A stretch of 15,137 nucleotides of DNA, taken from the IMG/VR virus record IMGVR_UViG_3300010350_000694, positions 1 to 15,137 of that record. One strand, given 5' to 3'. The position numbers and the translations under genes are program-made. Below, piece after piece: positions 3,093-15,137 of the stretch (its first letter is position 1; each line of letters opens with the position of its first letter). The DNA comes from a virus. The notes below the pieces were generated by a model. That model made no database searches and was not told the origin of the DNA. It saw nothing but the letters and a program-made list of their open reading frames with translations.

Positions 3093-4283
3093 CTAACTGG
3101 TACGTAATGAAGTCCAACCACGCCAAATATCATGGCAAGTATTTTTCCACACATTTTTATTGGTCAAAACACCATCCCAACCAAACGCGAATGCAACTCC
3201 ACGAGCTGCCGTCTTCTTAAATACGAGAACGAAGCAATTTGCAGTTGGTAAGTCATATATTGATGTATTTGCACTCTCGTAAAAGTACCACATGACTCTA
3301 TCATTCGCAGTGTTTTTCCAATCGCCTCCACCGCAGACTCCAGACTGATTAACCCATTCAGTGTCATAATCTGTGCCGGAAGCCTTAGCTAGAACTTGTC
3401 CAGATGAACCACCGGTGGGAACCCCTACACCAGAAGGTGTTACAGGTCCCCAATCGAGGCCGTTGTATCCGAGAACCTGTCCGCTCGTTGCATCCATAGT
3501 ATATACATCCATCAAGTCATCAAGAAACATAGCACCATCAGCACCAGCTGGACCCTGCGGACCTGTAGCACCTGTATCGCCAGTATCACCTTTAGGGCCC
3601 TGAGGGCCGGTCTCTCCCTGAGGTCCCGGCTCACCCTGAATTCCCTGAGGTCCCTGTTCGCCCTGAATACCCTGAGGGCCTGTATCGCCTTTATCGCCTT
3701 TAGGTCCCTGGATACCTTGGATACCCTGAGGACCAGTTTCTCCCTGAACACCCGGTTCACCTTGTGGACCCTGAGGACCAGTTTCTCCCTGAACACCCGG
3801 TTCACCTTGTGGACCCTGAGGGCCGGTCTCTCCCTGAGGTCCCGGCTCACCCTGAATTCCCTGAGGTCCCTGTTCGCCCTGAATACCCTGAGGGCCTGTA
3901 GCTCCTGTATCGCCTTTATCGCCTTTAGGTCCCTGGATACCTTGGATACCCTGAGGACCAGTCTCACCCTGAGAGCCAGCGGTACCAGTATCACCGGTGT
4001 CACCTTTCTCACCCTTCAAGTTATGGAAAGCAAAATCAAAACTAGGCGTCAAGTCAGGTCCGCTTCTTGTTATGGATACAGTAGGAGTACCAATATTGTA
4101 ATCAACGGAAGCAGTAGCAGATATGTCGGGAACCTGTGAGCCCCCACTATCCTGAAGTTCTGTGATGTTGTCTGTGTTCTGCTTAACCTGCTTAACCAAC
4201 CAGTCTAAGTTCAACTGGTGTAGGATATACTGAAGCTTACCATAAGGATACATATTATCATTAGGTGATCTATTATCAAACAT
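3093..4283 (-). CDS. Collagen-like tail fibre / appendage protein
   Basis: 396 aa. About 53 uninterrupted Gly-X-Y triplets run from [10 protein letters not shown] to GPAGADG. The C-terminal globular domain carries two SGQVL...DW motifs typical of phage fibre tips. The gene sits after the lower collar, the position of phi29 gp12. Confidence 0.8.
3598..3962. repeat. Nested DNA repeats inside the collagen-like region
   Basis: 3598-3737 (140 bp) recurs at 3814-3962 with one 9-bp (one G-X-Y) insertion at 3901-3909; the offset is 216 bp. Between the two copies is an exact 45-bp tandem duplication, 3724-3768 and 3769-3813. Confidence 0.9.
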
Positions 4284-5676: not shown

Positions 5677-6595
5677 CTTTTTGTTCCTCCATTTCCTCCA
5701 TATTATATCTCTTTTCTACCTTCATATCAACTCCGAACATAGCGTTAACTTCTTCGCAGCACTTCTGCATATTCTCCAACCACAAGTCACTTAAGCAAGT
5801 TGTCTCGATGTTGTTTGCATTTGCTTCGTCTACAATAAGTCTTTCACGCTTATCGGTGTTTGCGTTAGGTATACCAACCAGAGTACAGAATTGATCATTT
5901 AAGCTTGTAAGCGCAGTCAAGATATCGTTAGCAATGAATGTCTGAGACAAATTCTGTTGGAAAGGTGACCAACCAGGCGTTCCATCAGGAGTAAGAAGGT
6001 TCTTGTCCTGTACTACTGCAGGTTCACCAGATGCTATCATCTCAAACATTTTCTTAAATGCTTCAGCACCTGATTTTGTATCAGTGGTGAAAACATAAGC
6101 GAGCTGTGAGTTAATGAAGTTGCTATTAAGTGCCTGTGATGCAAGCGCCATCTGATCTGCGTAATAATCAACGATATCAAGGATAGATGTTGAAGCAGGA
6201 TTGAAATACAGGTCACCAAAACTAGGTGTCTCCTGCAATGTGAAAAGGACACAATCATTACCAATAGTCTTCTCTACTCCAGCAAGCAACGGATTAGATA
6301 CAATGATTTTCTTAGGACTATAGAACAAATTCTGTCCCATAAATGAACAAGACAACGCAACCAATCCATATTTCTTATCTTCGAAAACTCCAATATAACC
6401 AGCTGTAAACAAGACATTTCTAAAGTGTCTAATCTGATCACGGCTCCAGTTTTCAGGGTATCTGAACTTATAAACGCTGATGCACTTCTGCAACAGATAT
6501 TTCTTGAAGTAAAGATAAAGGGGCGCATTGTATGGCGCCCCTCCCCTTGGTGAAAACAACCCGGAGCCTGACTGAGGAATGTATGCATTACTCAT
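5657..6595 (-). CDS. Portal / upper collar connector protein (phi29 gp10-like)
   Basis: 312 aa (phi29 gp10 is 309 aa), SD AAAGGAG. The segment LVGIPNANTDKRERLIVDEANANNIE...VNAMFGVDMKVEKRYN parallels the remembered gp10 segment [28 protein letters not shown]...INELYGLNVKVKFRYD. Confidence 0.85.
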   Translation of the reverse strand: MSNAYIPQSGSGLFSPRGGAPYNAPLYLYFKKYLLQKCISVYKFRYPENWSRDQIRHFRNVLFTAGYIGVFEDKKYGLVALSCSFMGQNLFYSPKKIIVSNPLLAGVEKTIGNDCVLFTLQETPSFGDLYFNPASTSILDIVDYYADQMALASQALNSNFINSQLAYVFTTDTKSGAEAFKKMFEMIASGEPAVVQDKNLLTPDGTPGWSPFQQNLSQTFIANDILTALTSLNDQFCTLVGIPNANTDKRERLIVDEANANNIETTCLSDLWLENMQKCCEEVNAMFGVDMKVEKRYNMEEMEEQKDEIPDN

Positions 6596-10500: not shown

Positions 10501-10629
10501 ATATAGGTCCTTACTTGTTAAGAGTAAGATACGAGACATCAACCGAAAACGTTGAATGAGGTATCAAGACATATATTAAGCAAAGGAGAATTATGGAAAA
10601 TGATTGATGCCTCATATCTCCTATATATG

Positions 10630-10658
10630 ATTATATCAGGTTAAGTATCCACGGTCAA
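10630..10658 (-). promoter_or_regulatory. Near-consensus sigma-A promoter (TTGACC-17-TATAAT with TG extension)
   Basis: On the minus strand the -35 is at 10653-10658 and the -10 at 10630-10635. The TG of the extension is part of the polymerase TGA stop (10636-10638). A ~120-nt leader follows before the ATPase ATG. Confidence 0.7.
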
Positions 10659-13615: not shown

Positions 13616-13798
13616 TTAGTCACCTACGATGTAACGATTCACTGAACTTCCATAAACGGAACCTGATTTTAATTTAGTCACTTTATATATTACTTCATCA
13701 AGCGGCAATTCCCTGAGCCATACATCGCAGCCATCATCAATATAGATATAGATGCTGTCTCCATTAATCTCCCATCCAGTAATAATCGGATAATTCAT
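13616..13798 (-). CDS. Hypothetical 60-aa early protein
   Basis: The ATG at 13798 (MNYPIITGWEING...) has GGGAGG 7 nt upstream; the track start at 13813 has no SD. The stop is 2 nt before the TP-like gene. Composition is beta-rich and the function is unknown. Confidence 0.6.
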   Translation of the reverse strand: MNYPIITGWEINGDSIYIYIDDGCDVWLRELPLDEVIYKVTKLKSGSVYGSSVNRYIVGD

Positions 13799-13857
13799 TT
13801 GAGTACCTCCCATTTAGTATTTAAGTTTTGAGTATTTGAGTTTTGAGTAATTTGAGT
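13798..13857. repeat. Array of seven heptad-like units (minus strand ACTCAAA; plus strand TTTGAGT)
   Basis: Perfect TTTGAGT occurs at 13798, 13827, 13835, 13842 and 13851. Degenerate units are at 13813 (TTTAGT) and 13820 (TTTAAGT). Spacing within the six-unit run 13813-13857 is 7-9 bp; the 13798 unit lies 15 bp from 13813 because the SD (13806-11) sits between them. The array abuts the -10 and overlaps the ATG at 13798. Confidence 0.85.
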
Positions 13858-13883
13858 TTATATCAAACTACCCAAAACATCAA
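13857..13883 (-). promoter_or_regulatory. Candidate promoter for the replication operon (TTGATG-15-TATAAA with TG extension)
   Basis: On the minus strand the sequence TGATATAAA places the -10 at 13857-13862, and the -35 TTGATG is at 13878-13883. The 15-nt spacer is short, but the TG-extended -10 could compensate. Confidence 0.5.
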
Positions 13884-13890
13884 TACAAAA

Positions 13891-14016
13891 TTACTTCAAA
13901 TAATTTGTGATGATATCGCGAAGCAATTCACTAATGCTCTTGTGCTCTGTAAATGCACGATCTCTGAGCTTTTCCCACAGCTCAATTTCAATAACAAATG
14001 TTCTTGTAATCTTCAT
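13891..14016 (-). CDS. 41-aa ribbon-helix-helix (CopG/Arc/MetJ-type) DNA-binding protein (not in ORF track)
   Basis: My own translation: MKITRTFVIEIELWEKLRDRAFTEHKSISELLRDIITNYLK. It shows a beta-strand (RTFVIEI), helix A, an HKS turn and helix B, aligning in pattern with 45-aa CopG (RLTITLSESVLENLEKMAREMGLSKSAMISVALENY). SD GGAGG lies 8 nt upstream. Confidence 0.8.
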   Translation of the reverse strand: MKITRTFVIEIELWEKLRDRAFTEHKSISELLRDIITNYLK

Positions 14017-14049
14017 ATGCTTACCTCCTTCCATATAGAACGTATGTTT

Positions 14050-14167
14050 GTTCACACTTTGTTCACACTTTGTTCACACTTTTGGTCACAATTTGGTCAC
14101 AATTTGGTCACAATTTGGTCACAATTTGGTCACAATTTGGTCACAATTTGGTCACAATTTGGTCATA
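14050..14167. repeat. Head-to-tail 11-bp repeat array: 3 x GTTCACACTTT, then 7 x GGTCACAATTT, then a truncated eighth unit
   Basis: Counted directly. GTTCACACTTT starts at 14050, 14061 and 14072. GGTCACAATTT starts at 14084, 14095, 14106, 14117, 14128, 14139 and 14150, all exact. GGTCATA is at 14161-14167. The array is non-coding and ends 33 nt from the RHH ATG. Confidence 0.97.
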
Positions 14168-14173
14168 GGTTGC

Positions 14174-14206
14174 GGCCCATAAGGGCCAGGGTCATATGGC
14201 CCTGGC
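14174..14206 (-). other. GC-rich mutually exclusive hairpins between the 28-aa ORF and the 11-mer array
   Basis: GGCCC (14174-78) or GGCCC (14198-202) can each pair with GGGCC (14183-87). Alternatively GCCAGGG (14185-91) pairs with CCCTGGC (14200-06). No U-tract follows. Confidence 0.5.
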
Positions 14207-14214
14207 GTCGCCTC

Positions 14215-14223
14215 CTTATATCA
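14215..14223 (-). promoter_or_regulatory. Weak candidate extended -10 element (TGATATAAG) inside the end of the 28-aa ORF
   Basis: It has the same TGATATAA core as the four other minus-strand sites, but no acceptable -35 at 16-18 nt. The predicted +1 falls at the start of the GC-rich hairpins. Confidence 0.3.
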
Positions 14224-14302
14224 AGCCAAATGCCCAAGATAGCAACCAAGCAGCAATAATTAATAGTAAACCAGTTATGCATTTAAACTTTCTATCATCC
14301 AT
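14216..14302 (-). CDS. 28-aa hydrophobic micro-protein (not in ORF track)
   Basis: My own translation: MDDRKFKCITGLLLIIAAWLLSWAFGLI, a charged N-terminus followed by one TM-length segment. A strong SD (AAGGAGG) lies 7 nt upstream, immediately after the stop of the preceding gene. Confidence 0.5.
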   Translation of the reverse strand: MDDRKFKCITGLLLIIAAWLLSWAFGLI

Positions 14303-14572: not shown

Positions 14573-14587
14573 TGCCTTAATCTCCTT

Positions 14588-14671
14588 GCGTATGCCCGCC
14601 GGCTATATAGTGGCTTAATTAGCCCCATCACGGGCCCGGATATGTCACCGGGCCTGTTGTGCGACTAATTA
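14588..14671 (-). other. GC-rich structured intergenic element between the first two early genes
   Basis: The stem GGCCCGG/CCGGGCC (14633-39 with 14648-54, 8-nt loop) is nested in an outer stem TAATTAG/CTAATTA (14616-22 with 14665-71). The 13-mer GCGTATGCCCGCC (14588-14600) is 12/13 identical to 9401-9413. Confidence 0.5.
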
Positions 14672-14985: not shown

Positions 14986-15013
14986 ATTTTACCACATCCG
15001 CGCAATATAGCAA
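14986..15013 (-). promoter_or_regulatory. Candidate right-end early promoter (TTGCTA-16-TAAAAT with TG extension)
   Basis: On the minus strand TGGTAAAAT places the -10 at 14986-14991, and the -35 TTGCTA is at 15008-15013, just inside the ITR boundary. An overlapping alternative is TTGATT-15-TATATT. Confidence 0.45.
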
Positions 15014-15018
15014 TTAAA

Positions 15019-15137
15019 TTATTTAATCAACATGCACAAAATTTGGTATCGATATTTGTGCAACCTGTACACTTGACACCAGCGATCGGGGAACTGGCCG
15101 AACGCCTGTTATAGGCTATGATATATATTTATTATTT
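15019..15137. repeat. Right inverted terminal repeat
   Basis: Reverse complement of 1-119: 15050-15137 is exact, and 15019-15049 has 3 mismatches. Confidence 0.97.

Follow-up and report, generated by a model that had tools for sequence, protein, structure and literature searches.

In the complete 15.1-kb genome of a small phi29-like phage, IMGVR_UViG_3300010350_000694 (the window, that is, the whole stretch of 15,137 nucleotides analyzed here), the gene for a 41-aa ribbon-helix-helix (RHH) protein is flanked by two different repeat arrays. Direct 11-mer repeats precede the gene, and a run of ACTCAAA heptads follows it. The original prediction centered on the 11-mers and overlooked the heptads, yet it is the heptads downstream of the RHH gene that co-occur and are conserved with the RHH. 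We tentatively propose that the heptads are the primary operator of the RHH protein and that the 11-mers, which evolve fast, serve RHH loading and autoregulation as a secondary platform. An uncultured clade thus carries, as an optional cassette, a CopG-like RHH protein between two arrays of different geometry, and the comparison of relatives points to the heptads as the array of first interest.

The gene set of the phage is of the phi29 type and includes the Gp16 ATPase, Phi29_MCP, connector, and protein-primed polymerase. The genome is linear, is bounded by inverted terminal repeats (ITRs) of 119 bp, and is of the protein-primed lytic type, and all genes of the window lie on a single coding strand. 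Nucleotide comparison of the window with GenBank phages gave no match. At the protein level, identity does not exceed 39% in the best relatives, a set of uncultured gut phages, Amedibacillus phages, and Clostridium phage HM2. When the 19 ORFs were all scanned with Pfam and PHROG, no ParA, ParM, or TubZ-type NTPase was found, in agreement with the earlier statement that no ParM/ParA-type NTPase is encoded and that this is not a canonical partition locus. Likewise, no integrase gene was found among the window ORFs with Pfam and PHROG, and there is no att site. The RHH is the sole predicted DNA-binding protein of the early region. To our knowledge, the Bacillus p4/p6 system is the only one for which regulation in phi29-like phages is understood. 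Phi29 uses p4/p6 rather than an RHH for the early/late switch, has divergent transcription units, and also carries Spo0A boxes, a precedent for sites of host factors in phages of this type. The genome type is shared with phi29, and the early replication genes need regulation in both; in contrast, the present phage has an RHH cassette that is optional within its clade, and its genes all lie on one strand.

The iteron array occupies positions 14047..14167 on the minus strand and consists of eleven cores, T-R-TGA-M-C, at 11 bp with one 12-bp step. On the gene strand, the cores read TATGACC, seven times TGTGACC, and three times TGTGAAC, each followed by a 4-nt A-rich spacer. On the plus strand, the order is three GTTCACACTTT units (14050-14082), an extra T (14083), seven GGTCACAATTT units (14084-14160), and GGTCATA (14161-14167), which is exactly the unit composition first described. 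However, the earlier count of ten and a half units becomes eleven cores, since the supposedly truncated unit is a full core variant, TATGACC, on the minus strand. The proposed 11-bp register holds in nine of the ten core-to-core steps but is broken by the 12-bp step where the two subfamilies meet. Tandem Repeats Finder (TRF) places the array at 14047-14165 (period 11, 10.7 copies, 95% matches, score 187). The distance from the last core to the RHH ATG (14016) is 33 nt, as first described. The general picture also stands: the repeats are phased, their core is conserved and their spacer varies, and they lie on the transcribed strand directly 5' of a genuine minimal RHH gene. The array is not due to chance. 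The 11-mer with at most two mismatches has 15 matches in the window compared with 5.3 ± 2.3 in shuffles, and TGTGAMC has 13 matches compared with 3.8 ± 1.9, 10 of the 13 lying within the array. The 11-mer unit is found nowhere else in the genome, and only five scattered two-mismatch matches, approximately the shuffle number, lie outside the array. The units are direct, not inverted, repeats.

No promoter-like site was found within or after the array in a consensus scan. The likely source of the transcripts that cross it is an early promoter-like site, TTGCTA-16-TGgTAAAAT (14986..15013, minus strand), on the inner border of the 119-bp ITR. When 14000-14225 is folded as RNA, the array is unpaired in the centroid structure, and the region is not more stable than shuffles (z = 0.39). 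Rfam gave no match anywhere in the window at E <= 1. With the array RNA unstructured and no Rfam match, an RNA motif, as entertained earlier, or a pRNA is unsupported.

The RHH gene extends over 13891..14016 on the minus strand and encodes MKITRTFVIEIELWEKLRDRAFTEHKSISELLRDIITNYLK. The Pfam RHH_1 match (E = 0.003, 17.8 bits) lies under the gathering cut-off of 20.5, the PHROG match to an Arc-like repressor has a value of 1e-5, and a profile search of the PDB returned AvtR (0.0035), MatP, and Mnt (0.42). The AF2 model (single chain, pLDDT 89) shows residues 1-10 extended and helices at residues 11-23 and 28-40. The top Foldseek matches are all RHH proteins, the best being CopG (TM 0.82, prob 0.99, 27% identity). 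The predicted strand-helix-helix topology and CopG-like fold bear out the RHH identity proposed from the sequence, and by this model the 41-aa protein is a CopG-like RHH.

The heptad array lies at 13798..13860 on the minus strand (TRF 13812-13859). Four ACTCAAA boxes are exact (13851-57, 13842-48, 13835-41, and 13827-33), two are degenerate (CTTAAAT and ACTAAAT), and a further ACTCAAA (13798-13804) lies between the RBS and ATG of the next gene. The boxes are spaced at 7-9 bp and follow the pattern ACTC then 3-5 A/T. They overlap a promoter-like element of the 60-aa, terminal-protein, and polymerase genes (13855..13883, minus strand), in which TTGATG (13883-13878) and TAAACT (13860-13855) are separated by 17 nt. 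The same element can also be read as an extended -10, TGaTATAAA (13865-13857). It scores under the threshold of the consensus scan, and from its sequence we infer a putative replication-gene promoter; equivalents are TTGAAG-17-TAAACT in L017-L020 and TGTAAAAT/TGTAGAAT in L104/L005. Because the heptads sit on this element, the gate into the replication genes, which had been assigned to the upstream array, is more likely to be located at the heptads.

We compared six RHH variants in related phages. Heptads are present in all 13 RHH-bearing loci scanned, as well as in L102-L105, and in none of the 88 other loci, which comprise DNA polymerase relatives and three unrelated IMG/VR loci. Comparisons of matched pairs likewise show that the heptads accompany the RHH. 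In L004, L005, and L007 (51-61% polymerase identity) and in 80 more distant relatives, the RHH, the heptads, and the TGTGA arrays are all missing. In these sequence comparisons, the iterons, the RHH gene, and the promoter-like element with its heptads form a three-part cassette that is present or absent as a unit in the clade.

Orthologous 11-mer arrays occur in L008-L013, L015, L021, L104, and L105. The same core at 11-bp spacing is also found with RHHs only 54% identical (L104/L105 and L021), and these arrays start with the same TATGACC unit after a homologous hairpin; the core has therefore been kept while the neighboring DNA diverged to approximately 70%. A comparison of the 19 distinct units, drawn from four lineages, shows invariant core positions (1, 3, 4, 5, and 7) and variable spacer positions. 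The 11-bp spacing holds in 29 of 30 steps overall and in all steps of L010, L104, and L021. Copy number ranges from six cores (TRF 5.5 units) in L104/L105 to eleven in the window. The array type, in contrast, changes independently of the RHH. The identical RHH P0123 follows 16-mer repeats in L017/L020 but 10-mer repeats in L019, and these arrays are unrelated (GTTCATATGAGCCGCC × 3-4 in L017/L018/L020; TTGAATAATG units in L019). The 16-mer arrays are palindromic and, with a period of 16 bp, do not keep helical phase; their first unit, CATATGAGCAA, is homologous to the first 11-mer unit, TTATGACCAA. P0131, an 80% identical RHH with the same N-terminal T-R-T-F strand, has no tandem array. Thus, the 11-mers are not tied to the RHH as had been supposed: both sequence and period vary independently of the protein (P0123 and P0131), and among close relatives the array is absent or freely variable, an outcome that the original prediction itself had named as contrary evidence.

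At every RHH locus, a repeat array or an ordered box set lies directly 5' of the RBS. R-Y-T-C boxes, similar to the ACTC of the heptads, occur in most of these upstream elements, namely, GTTC in the type A minor units, GTTC/GCTC in the 16-mers, and ATTC in the 10-mers. The array-less L102 carries GAAC-N4-GTTC-N4-GAAT, which is present in 14 of 20,000 shuffles in a post-hoc test. Other local binders of the array were rejected. The upstream early proteins (85 aa in the window, 99 aa in L104, 89 aa in L020, and 90 aa in L019) are mutually dissimilar, while the window and L104 share the 11-mer core, and L017/L018 have a 16-mer array without this adjacent gene. A small downstream protein is excluded by L011/L012, which lack its gene and keep the array. 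Collection scans with the 5' end of the RHH gene found no further locus.

The same array is found in the same place in independent assemblies from other samples. Five of six contigs terminate inside it, and a sixth piece (L015) terminates in it from the opposite side. Hence, short-read assemblers break there, the exact count rests on few assemblies, and many 'incomplete' genomes of the clade end at this position. L010, an independent k141 assembly, spans its own array and also has 11 cores in another unit mix. The unit mix likewise differs in a strain 99.45% identical to the window. The suggestion that the two 11-mer subfamilies form two affinity classes finds no support, as they interconvert freely between near-identical strains. 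Moreover, the array/RBS segment is identical in L010 and the otherwise divergent L012, which indicates recombination; in both, the array directly abuts the RBS, and the array-to-RBS distance differs by 19 nt from that of the window.

Based on these observations, the eleven 7-bp cores, one per 11 bp, would provide a one-face protein-binding platform in the leader between the GC-rich hairpin and the RBS of the RHH gene. The conserved RHH operator would be the heptads on the promoter-like element of the terminal-protein and DNA polymerase genes, where replication-gene expression is most likely gated, and the same RHH would most likely load onto the 11-mers as a secondary site, with lower specificity. 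At high RHH levels, its dimers would occupy a site at each helical turn, in the manner of CopG on its operator. The loaded array would block transcription from the early promoter and would thereby limit both RHH synthesis, as autoregulation, and read-through. The stretch from the array to the RBS contains no promoter, which favors a roadblock or a function in the leader over activator binding. Each newly replicated genome brings approximately 11 + 7 more sites, and a rising copy number would therefore lower the occupancy. Occupation of the 11-mers by the RHH, rather than by another factor, is what we infer here, and the effect of occupancy is proposed at the same strength. Should the RHH coat the heptads, and possibly the 11-mers as well, the cassette would be a minimal switch for replication-gene expression; it would then also offer a natural example of a single RHH that does, or does not, work with two site geometries.

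Both arrays can be compared with known RHH systems. The heptads of omega (pSM19035), WATCACW, share TCA-N-A with both phage arrays. In TP228, the ACTC boxes, with 4-bp AT-rich spacers, number twelve in parH and eight in the operator; one ParG dimer binds per box, and the protein tolerates rearranged geometries (PMC3130281). The phage heptads are similar in that ACTC is followed by 3-5 A/T, the boxes lie over a promoter-like element, and they always occur with the RHH. Runs of 7-8-bp boxes at a promoter, co-inherited with an RHH as for ParG and omega, are found at the heptads and not at the 11-mers. The latter have a period of 11 rather than 7-8 bp (7-9 bp in the phage heptads) and a different core, and the best match of any 11-mer unit to ACTCAAA is 4/7. 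In addition, the phage has no ParF or delta ATPase partner, the flexible N-terminal tail that ParG and omega share is missing from its RHH, and the homology shown is that of the RHH fold. For CopG, cooperative binding places four dimers on a single DNA face, with one helical turn from site to site, and at high concentration extra dimers nucleate from the operator (PMC2724298). CopG (RepA of pMV158, 45 aa) and the phage protein (41 aa) are both minimal RHHs, and the phage 11-bp register fits the CopG geometry. The parallel drawn with CopG is supported, as the closest structural relative binds cooperatively on one face of the DNA. However, CopG belongs to a rolling-circle plasmid, and its operator comprises four sites and a 13-bp pseudo-symmetric element over its own promoter, whereas the phage array comprises eleven direct repeats without a promoter within or after it; neither promoter overlap nor a pseudo-symmetric site is found at the 11-mers. 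Several further observations speak against the RHH on the 11-mers. The major unit of the window (antisense GGTC) is not an R-Y-T-C box, and the argument from shared boxes concerns a 4-5-nt motif picked after seeing the data. Heptads at 7-9 bp together with 11-mers demand two binding geometries from one 41-aa protein, the identical P0123 stands behind two unrelated arrays, and P0131 has none. The binder should therefore not be inferred from adjacency alone.

Cellular or mobile-element factors use the same core and spacing in more than 120 bacterial loci where no RHH is seen. The main rival reading is possible, though unlikely: the 11-mers are a platform for a host direct-repeat binder, such as an OmpR/PhoB-type regulator or another TGTGA-type half-site factor; that host state thereby controls RHH expression and hence the replication genes, with arrays swapped on a change of host, is unlikely to the same degree. 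The independence of array type from the RHH would fit such a factor, as would the conservation of the core between distant RHH lineages, and Spo0A boxes allow phi29 to sense sporulation. The figure of more than 120 bacterial loci with TGTGAMC-N4 × 3 is a raw count, by which enrichment of the core is unproven; 25 of 120 genome matches have a tRNA gene at a distance of at most 300 nt and resemble integrase arm sites, which imply a different binder. Some triplets of identical core and spacing lie beside tRNA or integrase genes and others 5' of promoters; the phage has neither integrase nor att. In Clostridia/Eubacteriales, triplets precede promoters as well as genes whose products are secreted or belong to the cell wall, including dockerin proteins (L152/L153) and a cell-wall hydrolase (L148). 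Cellular sites have 2-4 repeats compared with 11 in the phage, except for L176, where 12 iterons are followed by TTGACA-17-TATAAT. The gene downstream in L176 starts with MKITKT and was rejected as an RHH, as profile comparison aligns 7 residues only. Exact 22-mer matches in IMG/VR (L001-L003) are unrelated elements, not relatives, with 2-3 units beside an integrase gene or tRNA fragment, and their number fits chance plus arm-type sites. As to the factor itself, WalR and other OmpR-family sites are direct repeats of a 6-7-bp core at an 11-bp period, and the phage TGTGAA/TGTGAC plus 5 nt matches the hexamer plus 5-nt architecture of TGTWAH-N5-TGTWAH (PMC9210968). However, the invariant G at core position 4 and the A or G at position 2 misfit TGTWAH, for which WalR itself was rejected, and no promoter lies downstream. 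TTGTGAA is a Rex half-site (PMC2883068), but Rex and CRP-type factors require inverted rather than direct half-sites. An activator role is excluded in any case, as no promoter follows the phage array. We consider improbable the more elaborate proposal that the hypervariable array is a host-state sensor, in which a host direct-repeat regulator on the 11-mers sets the level of the RHH as master repressor. Equally improbable is its extension to a dormancy or carrier-state switch for a strictly lytic protein-primed phage, with the module (11-mer, 16-mer, 10-mer, or none) swapped by recombination at host shifts. If true, it would extend the phi29-Spo0A principle to uncultured gut and digester podoviruses in a plug-in architecture.

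The array could also act without a dedicated binder, as an unstructured A-rich RNA leader (ribosome standby or spacer) or as intrinsically bent DNA. It lies on the transcribed strand and is unpaired in the fold, and the distance from hairpin to RBS is 45-120 nt in every lineage, whatever the sequence. Phased A-tracts add up to a DNA bend, and here an A3-4 spacer recurs every 11 bp. We hold such a role to be improbable as well: it leaves unexplained both the strict 11-nt phasing and the five invariant core positions beside variable spacers across lineages, the 16-mer arrays are palindromic and out of helical phase, and the array-to-RBS distance shifts by 19 nt in L010/L012. A largely neutral expansion prone to slippage and recombination at a module boundary, where a short ancestral element was amplified unequally, would account for the range of copy numbers among relatives (none, 3-4 units, 6 cores, and 11 cores), the altered unit mix between 99.45% identical strains, the recombined L010/L012 segment, and the homology of the first 16-mer and 11-mer units. 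This appears distinctly improbable, as the core and exact 11-bp register are retained with RHHs 54% identical, both spanning assemblies have 11 cores despite unlike unit composition, and some repeat set is found at nearly every RHH locus. Finally, the R1 parC site has about ten 11-bp direct iterons with its RHH binder ParR encoded next door, a layout that the eleven phage cores and their RHH gene resemble. RHH centromere-binding proteins do coat repeat arrays (PMC3130281), and RHH-coated phage DNA might be captured by a host motor or tether in a carrier state or in spores. This parC-type reading is very improbable. In R1, the iterons flank the parMR promoter, and the operon includes the gene for the actin-like ParM. 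No promoter is embedded in the phage array, and no ParA, ParM, or TubZ gene was found among the 19 ORFs, for which a partition locus proper was rejected. In addition, the array is missing or replaced in close relatives and is thus dispensable, and the genome is linear, ITR-bounded, and of a lytic type.

The RBS of the RHH gene, GGAAGGAGG, lies at 14024..14032 on the minus strand. On the other side of the array, two overlapping GC-rich hairpins, CCAGGGCCATATGACCCTGG and GGCCCTTATGGGCC, preceded by AAGGAGGCGACGCC, span 14174..14212 on the minus strand by sequence and RNA fold. They are the only stable element of the fold and are not followed by a U-tract, and a homologous hairpin element lies 5' of every upstream array type in the relatives. 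The hairpins may represent a transcript end, a processing site, or a 5' stabilizer. The last gene before them is an early ORF for a 28-aa hydrophobic protein, MDDRKFKCITGLLLIIAAWLLSWAFGLI (14216..14302, minus strand), with a strong RBS and a homologue in L102/L103. A possible extended -10, TTGATATAA, is located at the end of this gene and is restricted to the lineage of the window.

The phased 11-bp iterons that the original prediction placed upstream of the gene for the 41-aa ribbon-helix-helix (RHH) protein were confirmed by TRF and by the sequence itself, TRF delimiting them at 14047-14165 (period 11, 10.7 copies, 95% matches). On the plus strand, the array consists of three GTTCACACTTT units, an extra T, seven GGTCACAATTT units, and GGTCATA. 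On the gene strand, it holds 11 cores of the form T-R-TGA-M-C (TATGACC, seven TGTGACC, and three TGTGAAC) rather than the predicted ten and a half units; an A-rich spacer of 4 nt trails each core, and the spacing is 11 bp with a single 12-bp step. The unit shows no above-chance occurrence in the rest of the window genome. The array ends 33 nt from the ATG of the RHH gene (14016-13891, minus strand), which has a strong RBS, and begins just past two GC-rich hairpins (14174-14212, minus strand). Hairpins of this type (GGCCCGG..CCGGGCC), which lack a U-tract, also stand at about 14625-14655 (minus strand), both sets lying after early genes in a genome of roughly 40% GC. In relatives, a homologous hairpin element (AAGGCACCGCGACCGGCCCGGG...) lies ahead of every upstream array type and marks points where the early-gene modules differ; it is a candidate terminator, processing site, or recombination hot spot.

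At least five other samples yielded contigs encoding the identical 41-aa protein, all with the array at the same position. Five of these six contigs (L008, L009, L011, L012, and L013) start within the array, and L015, a separate left-end piece, ends inside it; thus, short-read assemblers break at the array. The existence of the array is secure, and the count of 11 cores is plausible, although it comes from two spanning assemblies, the window and contig L010 (a k141 assembly), which spans its own array and has 11 cores too. Many "incomplete" genomes of this clade are probably truncated at the 11-mer repeat.

The 41-aa protein matches Pfam RHH_1 just under the cut-off (E = 0.003) and a PHROG Arc-like repressor at 1e-5, and a six-sequence profile matches the RHH proteins AvtR, MatP, and Mnt in the PDB. 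Its AlphaFold2 model (pLDDT 89) shows an extended N-terminus and two helices, and the top structural matches are CopG chains (TM 0.82, prob 0.99). By its predicted fold, the protein is a minimal CopG-like member of the RHH superfamily. HMMER over 1.8 billion representatives combined with a profile search yielded only six mini-RHH variants. All belong to related phages and share one genomic position, with a small gene and then the genes for the terminal protein and the polymerase downstream.

Every RHH locus carries a run of ACTCAAA heptads in the interval from the RHH stop codon to the next RBS; in the window, the run occupies 13798-13860 (minus strand) with a period of 7-9. A regular-expression scan detected this array in 13 of 13 RHH loci and in none of 88 other loci, comprising DNAP relatives and three unrelated IMG/VR loci; L102-L105, outside the 13-locus set, also have it. 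Moreover, in matched pairs with homologous intergenic DNA (L104 versus L005, and L019 versus L007), the heptads are present only where RHH is present. In the window, they begin at and overlap a promoter-like TTGATG-17-TAAACT element, alternatively read as an extended -10 (TGaTATAAA), with counterparts in relatives. A repressor of the replication operon would act at just this location. Because the heptads, unlike the 11-mers, are tightly coupled to RHH, they are the best candidate for its specific operator and probably the real one. The nucleoprotein switch originally proposed may exist, but its conserved half is the heptad array, which had been missed.

The upstream repeats vary among relatives. 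Loci encoding the identical protein P0121 (window, L010, and L012) carry the TGTGA-type 11-mer with 11 cores, L012 having at least 9.5 units. The variants P0125, P0132, and P0133 (53-55% identical to the window RHH; L021, L104, and L105) lie behind the same core at 11-bp spacing, with TATGACC as the first unit after the homologous hairpin, as in the window; six cores are present in L104 and L105, and 5.5 units by TRF in L021. For P0123 (68%), L017, L018, and L020 carry 3.3-4.4 copies of a 16-nt unit, GTTCATATGAGCCGCC, whereas L019, with the identical P0123, carries TTGAATAATG-type units. P0131 (80%; L102 and L103) shares the T-R-T-F reading strand with the window RHH and has no tandem array. 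Over 5.8 kb, L010 and the window share 99.45% identity; however, most array units differ between L010 153-270 and window 14047-14167, and the 19-nt spacer ahead of the window RBS is missing from L010. Since L010 and L012 have identical array/RBS segments although L012 is divergent elsewhere, with a polymerase only 66% identical to that of the window and a terminal-protein gene that is unalignable, recombination at this spot is indicated, and the array is a recombination or gene-conversion hot spot. Collectively, the comparison shows that the sequence, period, copy number, and even presence of the array are uncoupled from the RHH protein, and the 10.5-unit, two-subfamily architecture is not conserved. 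The original observation is confirmed, and its interpretation is supported in part.

Across lineages, five of seven core positions are invariant, the spacers are variable, and the 11-bp register is strict, which are hallmarks of a protein-binding iteron. Early phage proteins encoded beside the arrays are unlikely binders, as they are mutually unrelated even between the two lineages with the 11-mer core, and L017 and L018 have an array without the adjacent early gene. The product of the small downstream gene is also unlikely, that gene being missing in L011 and L012. The remaining candidates are RHH itself, with lower specificity, and a host factor. In support of RHH, an ordered set of repeats of some kind precedes the RBS at every RHH locus and accompanies the cassette. 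CopG, the nearest structural relative, occupies four sites spaced by one helical turn along a single DNA face, with extra dimers extending from the operator (PMC2724298), and ParG exemplifies an RHH protein able to coat ACTC-box variants even when their geometry is changed (PMC3130281). Most upstream elements contain R-Y-T-C boxes that recall the ACTC of the heptads, but the major unit of the window does not fit. The array-less L102 has GAAC-N4-GTTC-N4-GAAT, found in 14 of 20,000 shuffles (post hoc test). Occupation of the 11-mers by a host direct-repeat binder is somewhat unlikely. In its favor, TGTGAMC-N4 x 3 occurs at at least 120 loci in 185,579 bacterial and archaeal genomes, a raw count that may not reflect enrichment of this core. 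Of the 120 loci listed, 25 have a tRNA gene within 300 nt, at 46-150 nt, and one abuts an integrase gene; these triplets look like integrase arm-type sites, and a widespread integrase family may recognize the core. Other triplets, in Clostridia, lie upstream of promoters of secreted or cell-wall protein genes. Cellular and mobile-element proteins therefore employ an identical core and spacing. WalR sites, TGTWAH-N5-TGTWAH (PMC9210968), have this architecture as well, although positions 2 and 4 of the core depart from that consensus, and TTGTGAA is a Rex half-site (PMC2883068), although Rex requires inverted repeats. Among the 120 loci listed, the closest non-phage analogue of the array is in L176, a 14.4-kb Bacillota contig, where twelve 11-bp units (CTGTGAACAAA, TTATGAACAAA, CTGTAAATAAA; 6110-6240) immediately precede an A-tract and a consensus TTGACA-17-TATAAT promoter; this promoter drives a gene starting MKITKT, 130 nt into which the contig ends.

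An upstream activator role of the 11-mer array at the RHH gene is excluded, because a promoter scan found no sigma-70-like promoter in or after it and because it abuts the RBS in L010 and L012. Transcripts crossing it must enter from upstream, the probable source being the early promoter-like site by the edge of the ITR (15013-14986), and would pass through the GC hairpins, which have no U-tract; protein coating the array would in that case be a roadblock in the RHH-gene leader. In our best reading, held tentatively and at a little under even confidence as a whole, RHH would occupy the heptads first and repress the replication operon. At higher concentrations it would fill the 11-mers, one dimer per helical turn, limiting its own synthesis and read-through, while replicating genomes would titrate the protein. 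RNA folding leaves the array without structure. A binder-free leader or bent-DNA role is improbable. Because the core outlasted the divergence that took RHH to 54% identity, the array does not appear to be junk, and largely neutral expansion is quite improbable. The array resembles R1 parC in numerology but has no embedded promoter, and no partition NTPase was found in the window genome by Pfam and PHROG scans; a centromere is very improbable indeed. The 11-mer array is CopG-like in its geometry, but it has neither an overlapping promoter nor a pseudo-symmetric site, and it is the heptads rather than the 11-mers that resemble ParG/omega operators. RHH repressors with iterated operators are known; new are two flanking arrays of different period, one hypervariable, in a lytic protein-primed phage.

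The window genome is complete and linear (15,137 bp), with inverted terminal repeats of 119 bp and all genes on the minus strand. Its gene products include a family-B protein-primed DNA polymerase, a Podovirus_Gp16 packaging ATPase (Pfam, PHROG), a CHAP/PG-binding endolysin, a Phi29_MCP capsid protein, a phi29-type connector, and a collagen-like protein; based on the gene content and the linear ITR genome, the phage is a small phi29-like podovirus. A nucleotide comparison with GenBank phages found none that is similar. The closest isolates are Amedibacillus and Clostridium phages (polymerase identity 32-34%), and metagenomes hold related polymerases in thousands, the closest distinct ones being 61% identical. 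The collagen-like protein (3093-4283, minus strand; 396 aa; Gly-X-Y repeats; Pfam Collagen, 8.7e-28) is probably a tail fibre or appendage and explains the TRF rows of period 9, 18, 27, and 45. Non-coding gaps lie between the polymerase and ATPase genes (10543-10635) and between the first two early genes (14573-14668); no pRNA-like Rfam match was found anywhere in the genome, despite the Gp16-type ATPase and phi29-type connector. Finally, the right ITR carries an inverted repeat, GGTTGCACAAAT ... ATTTTGTGCA (15033-15064, minus strand), mirrored at the left end; the early promoter-like site follows just downstream of it. Motifs of a related kind, TTGCACAA, appear again close to where the contig of the relative L004 ends, and the repeat could be an origin or regulator site.
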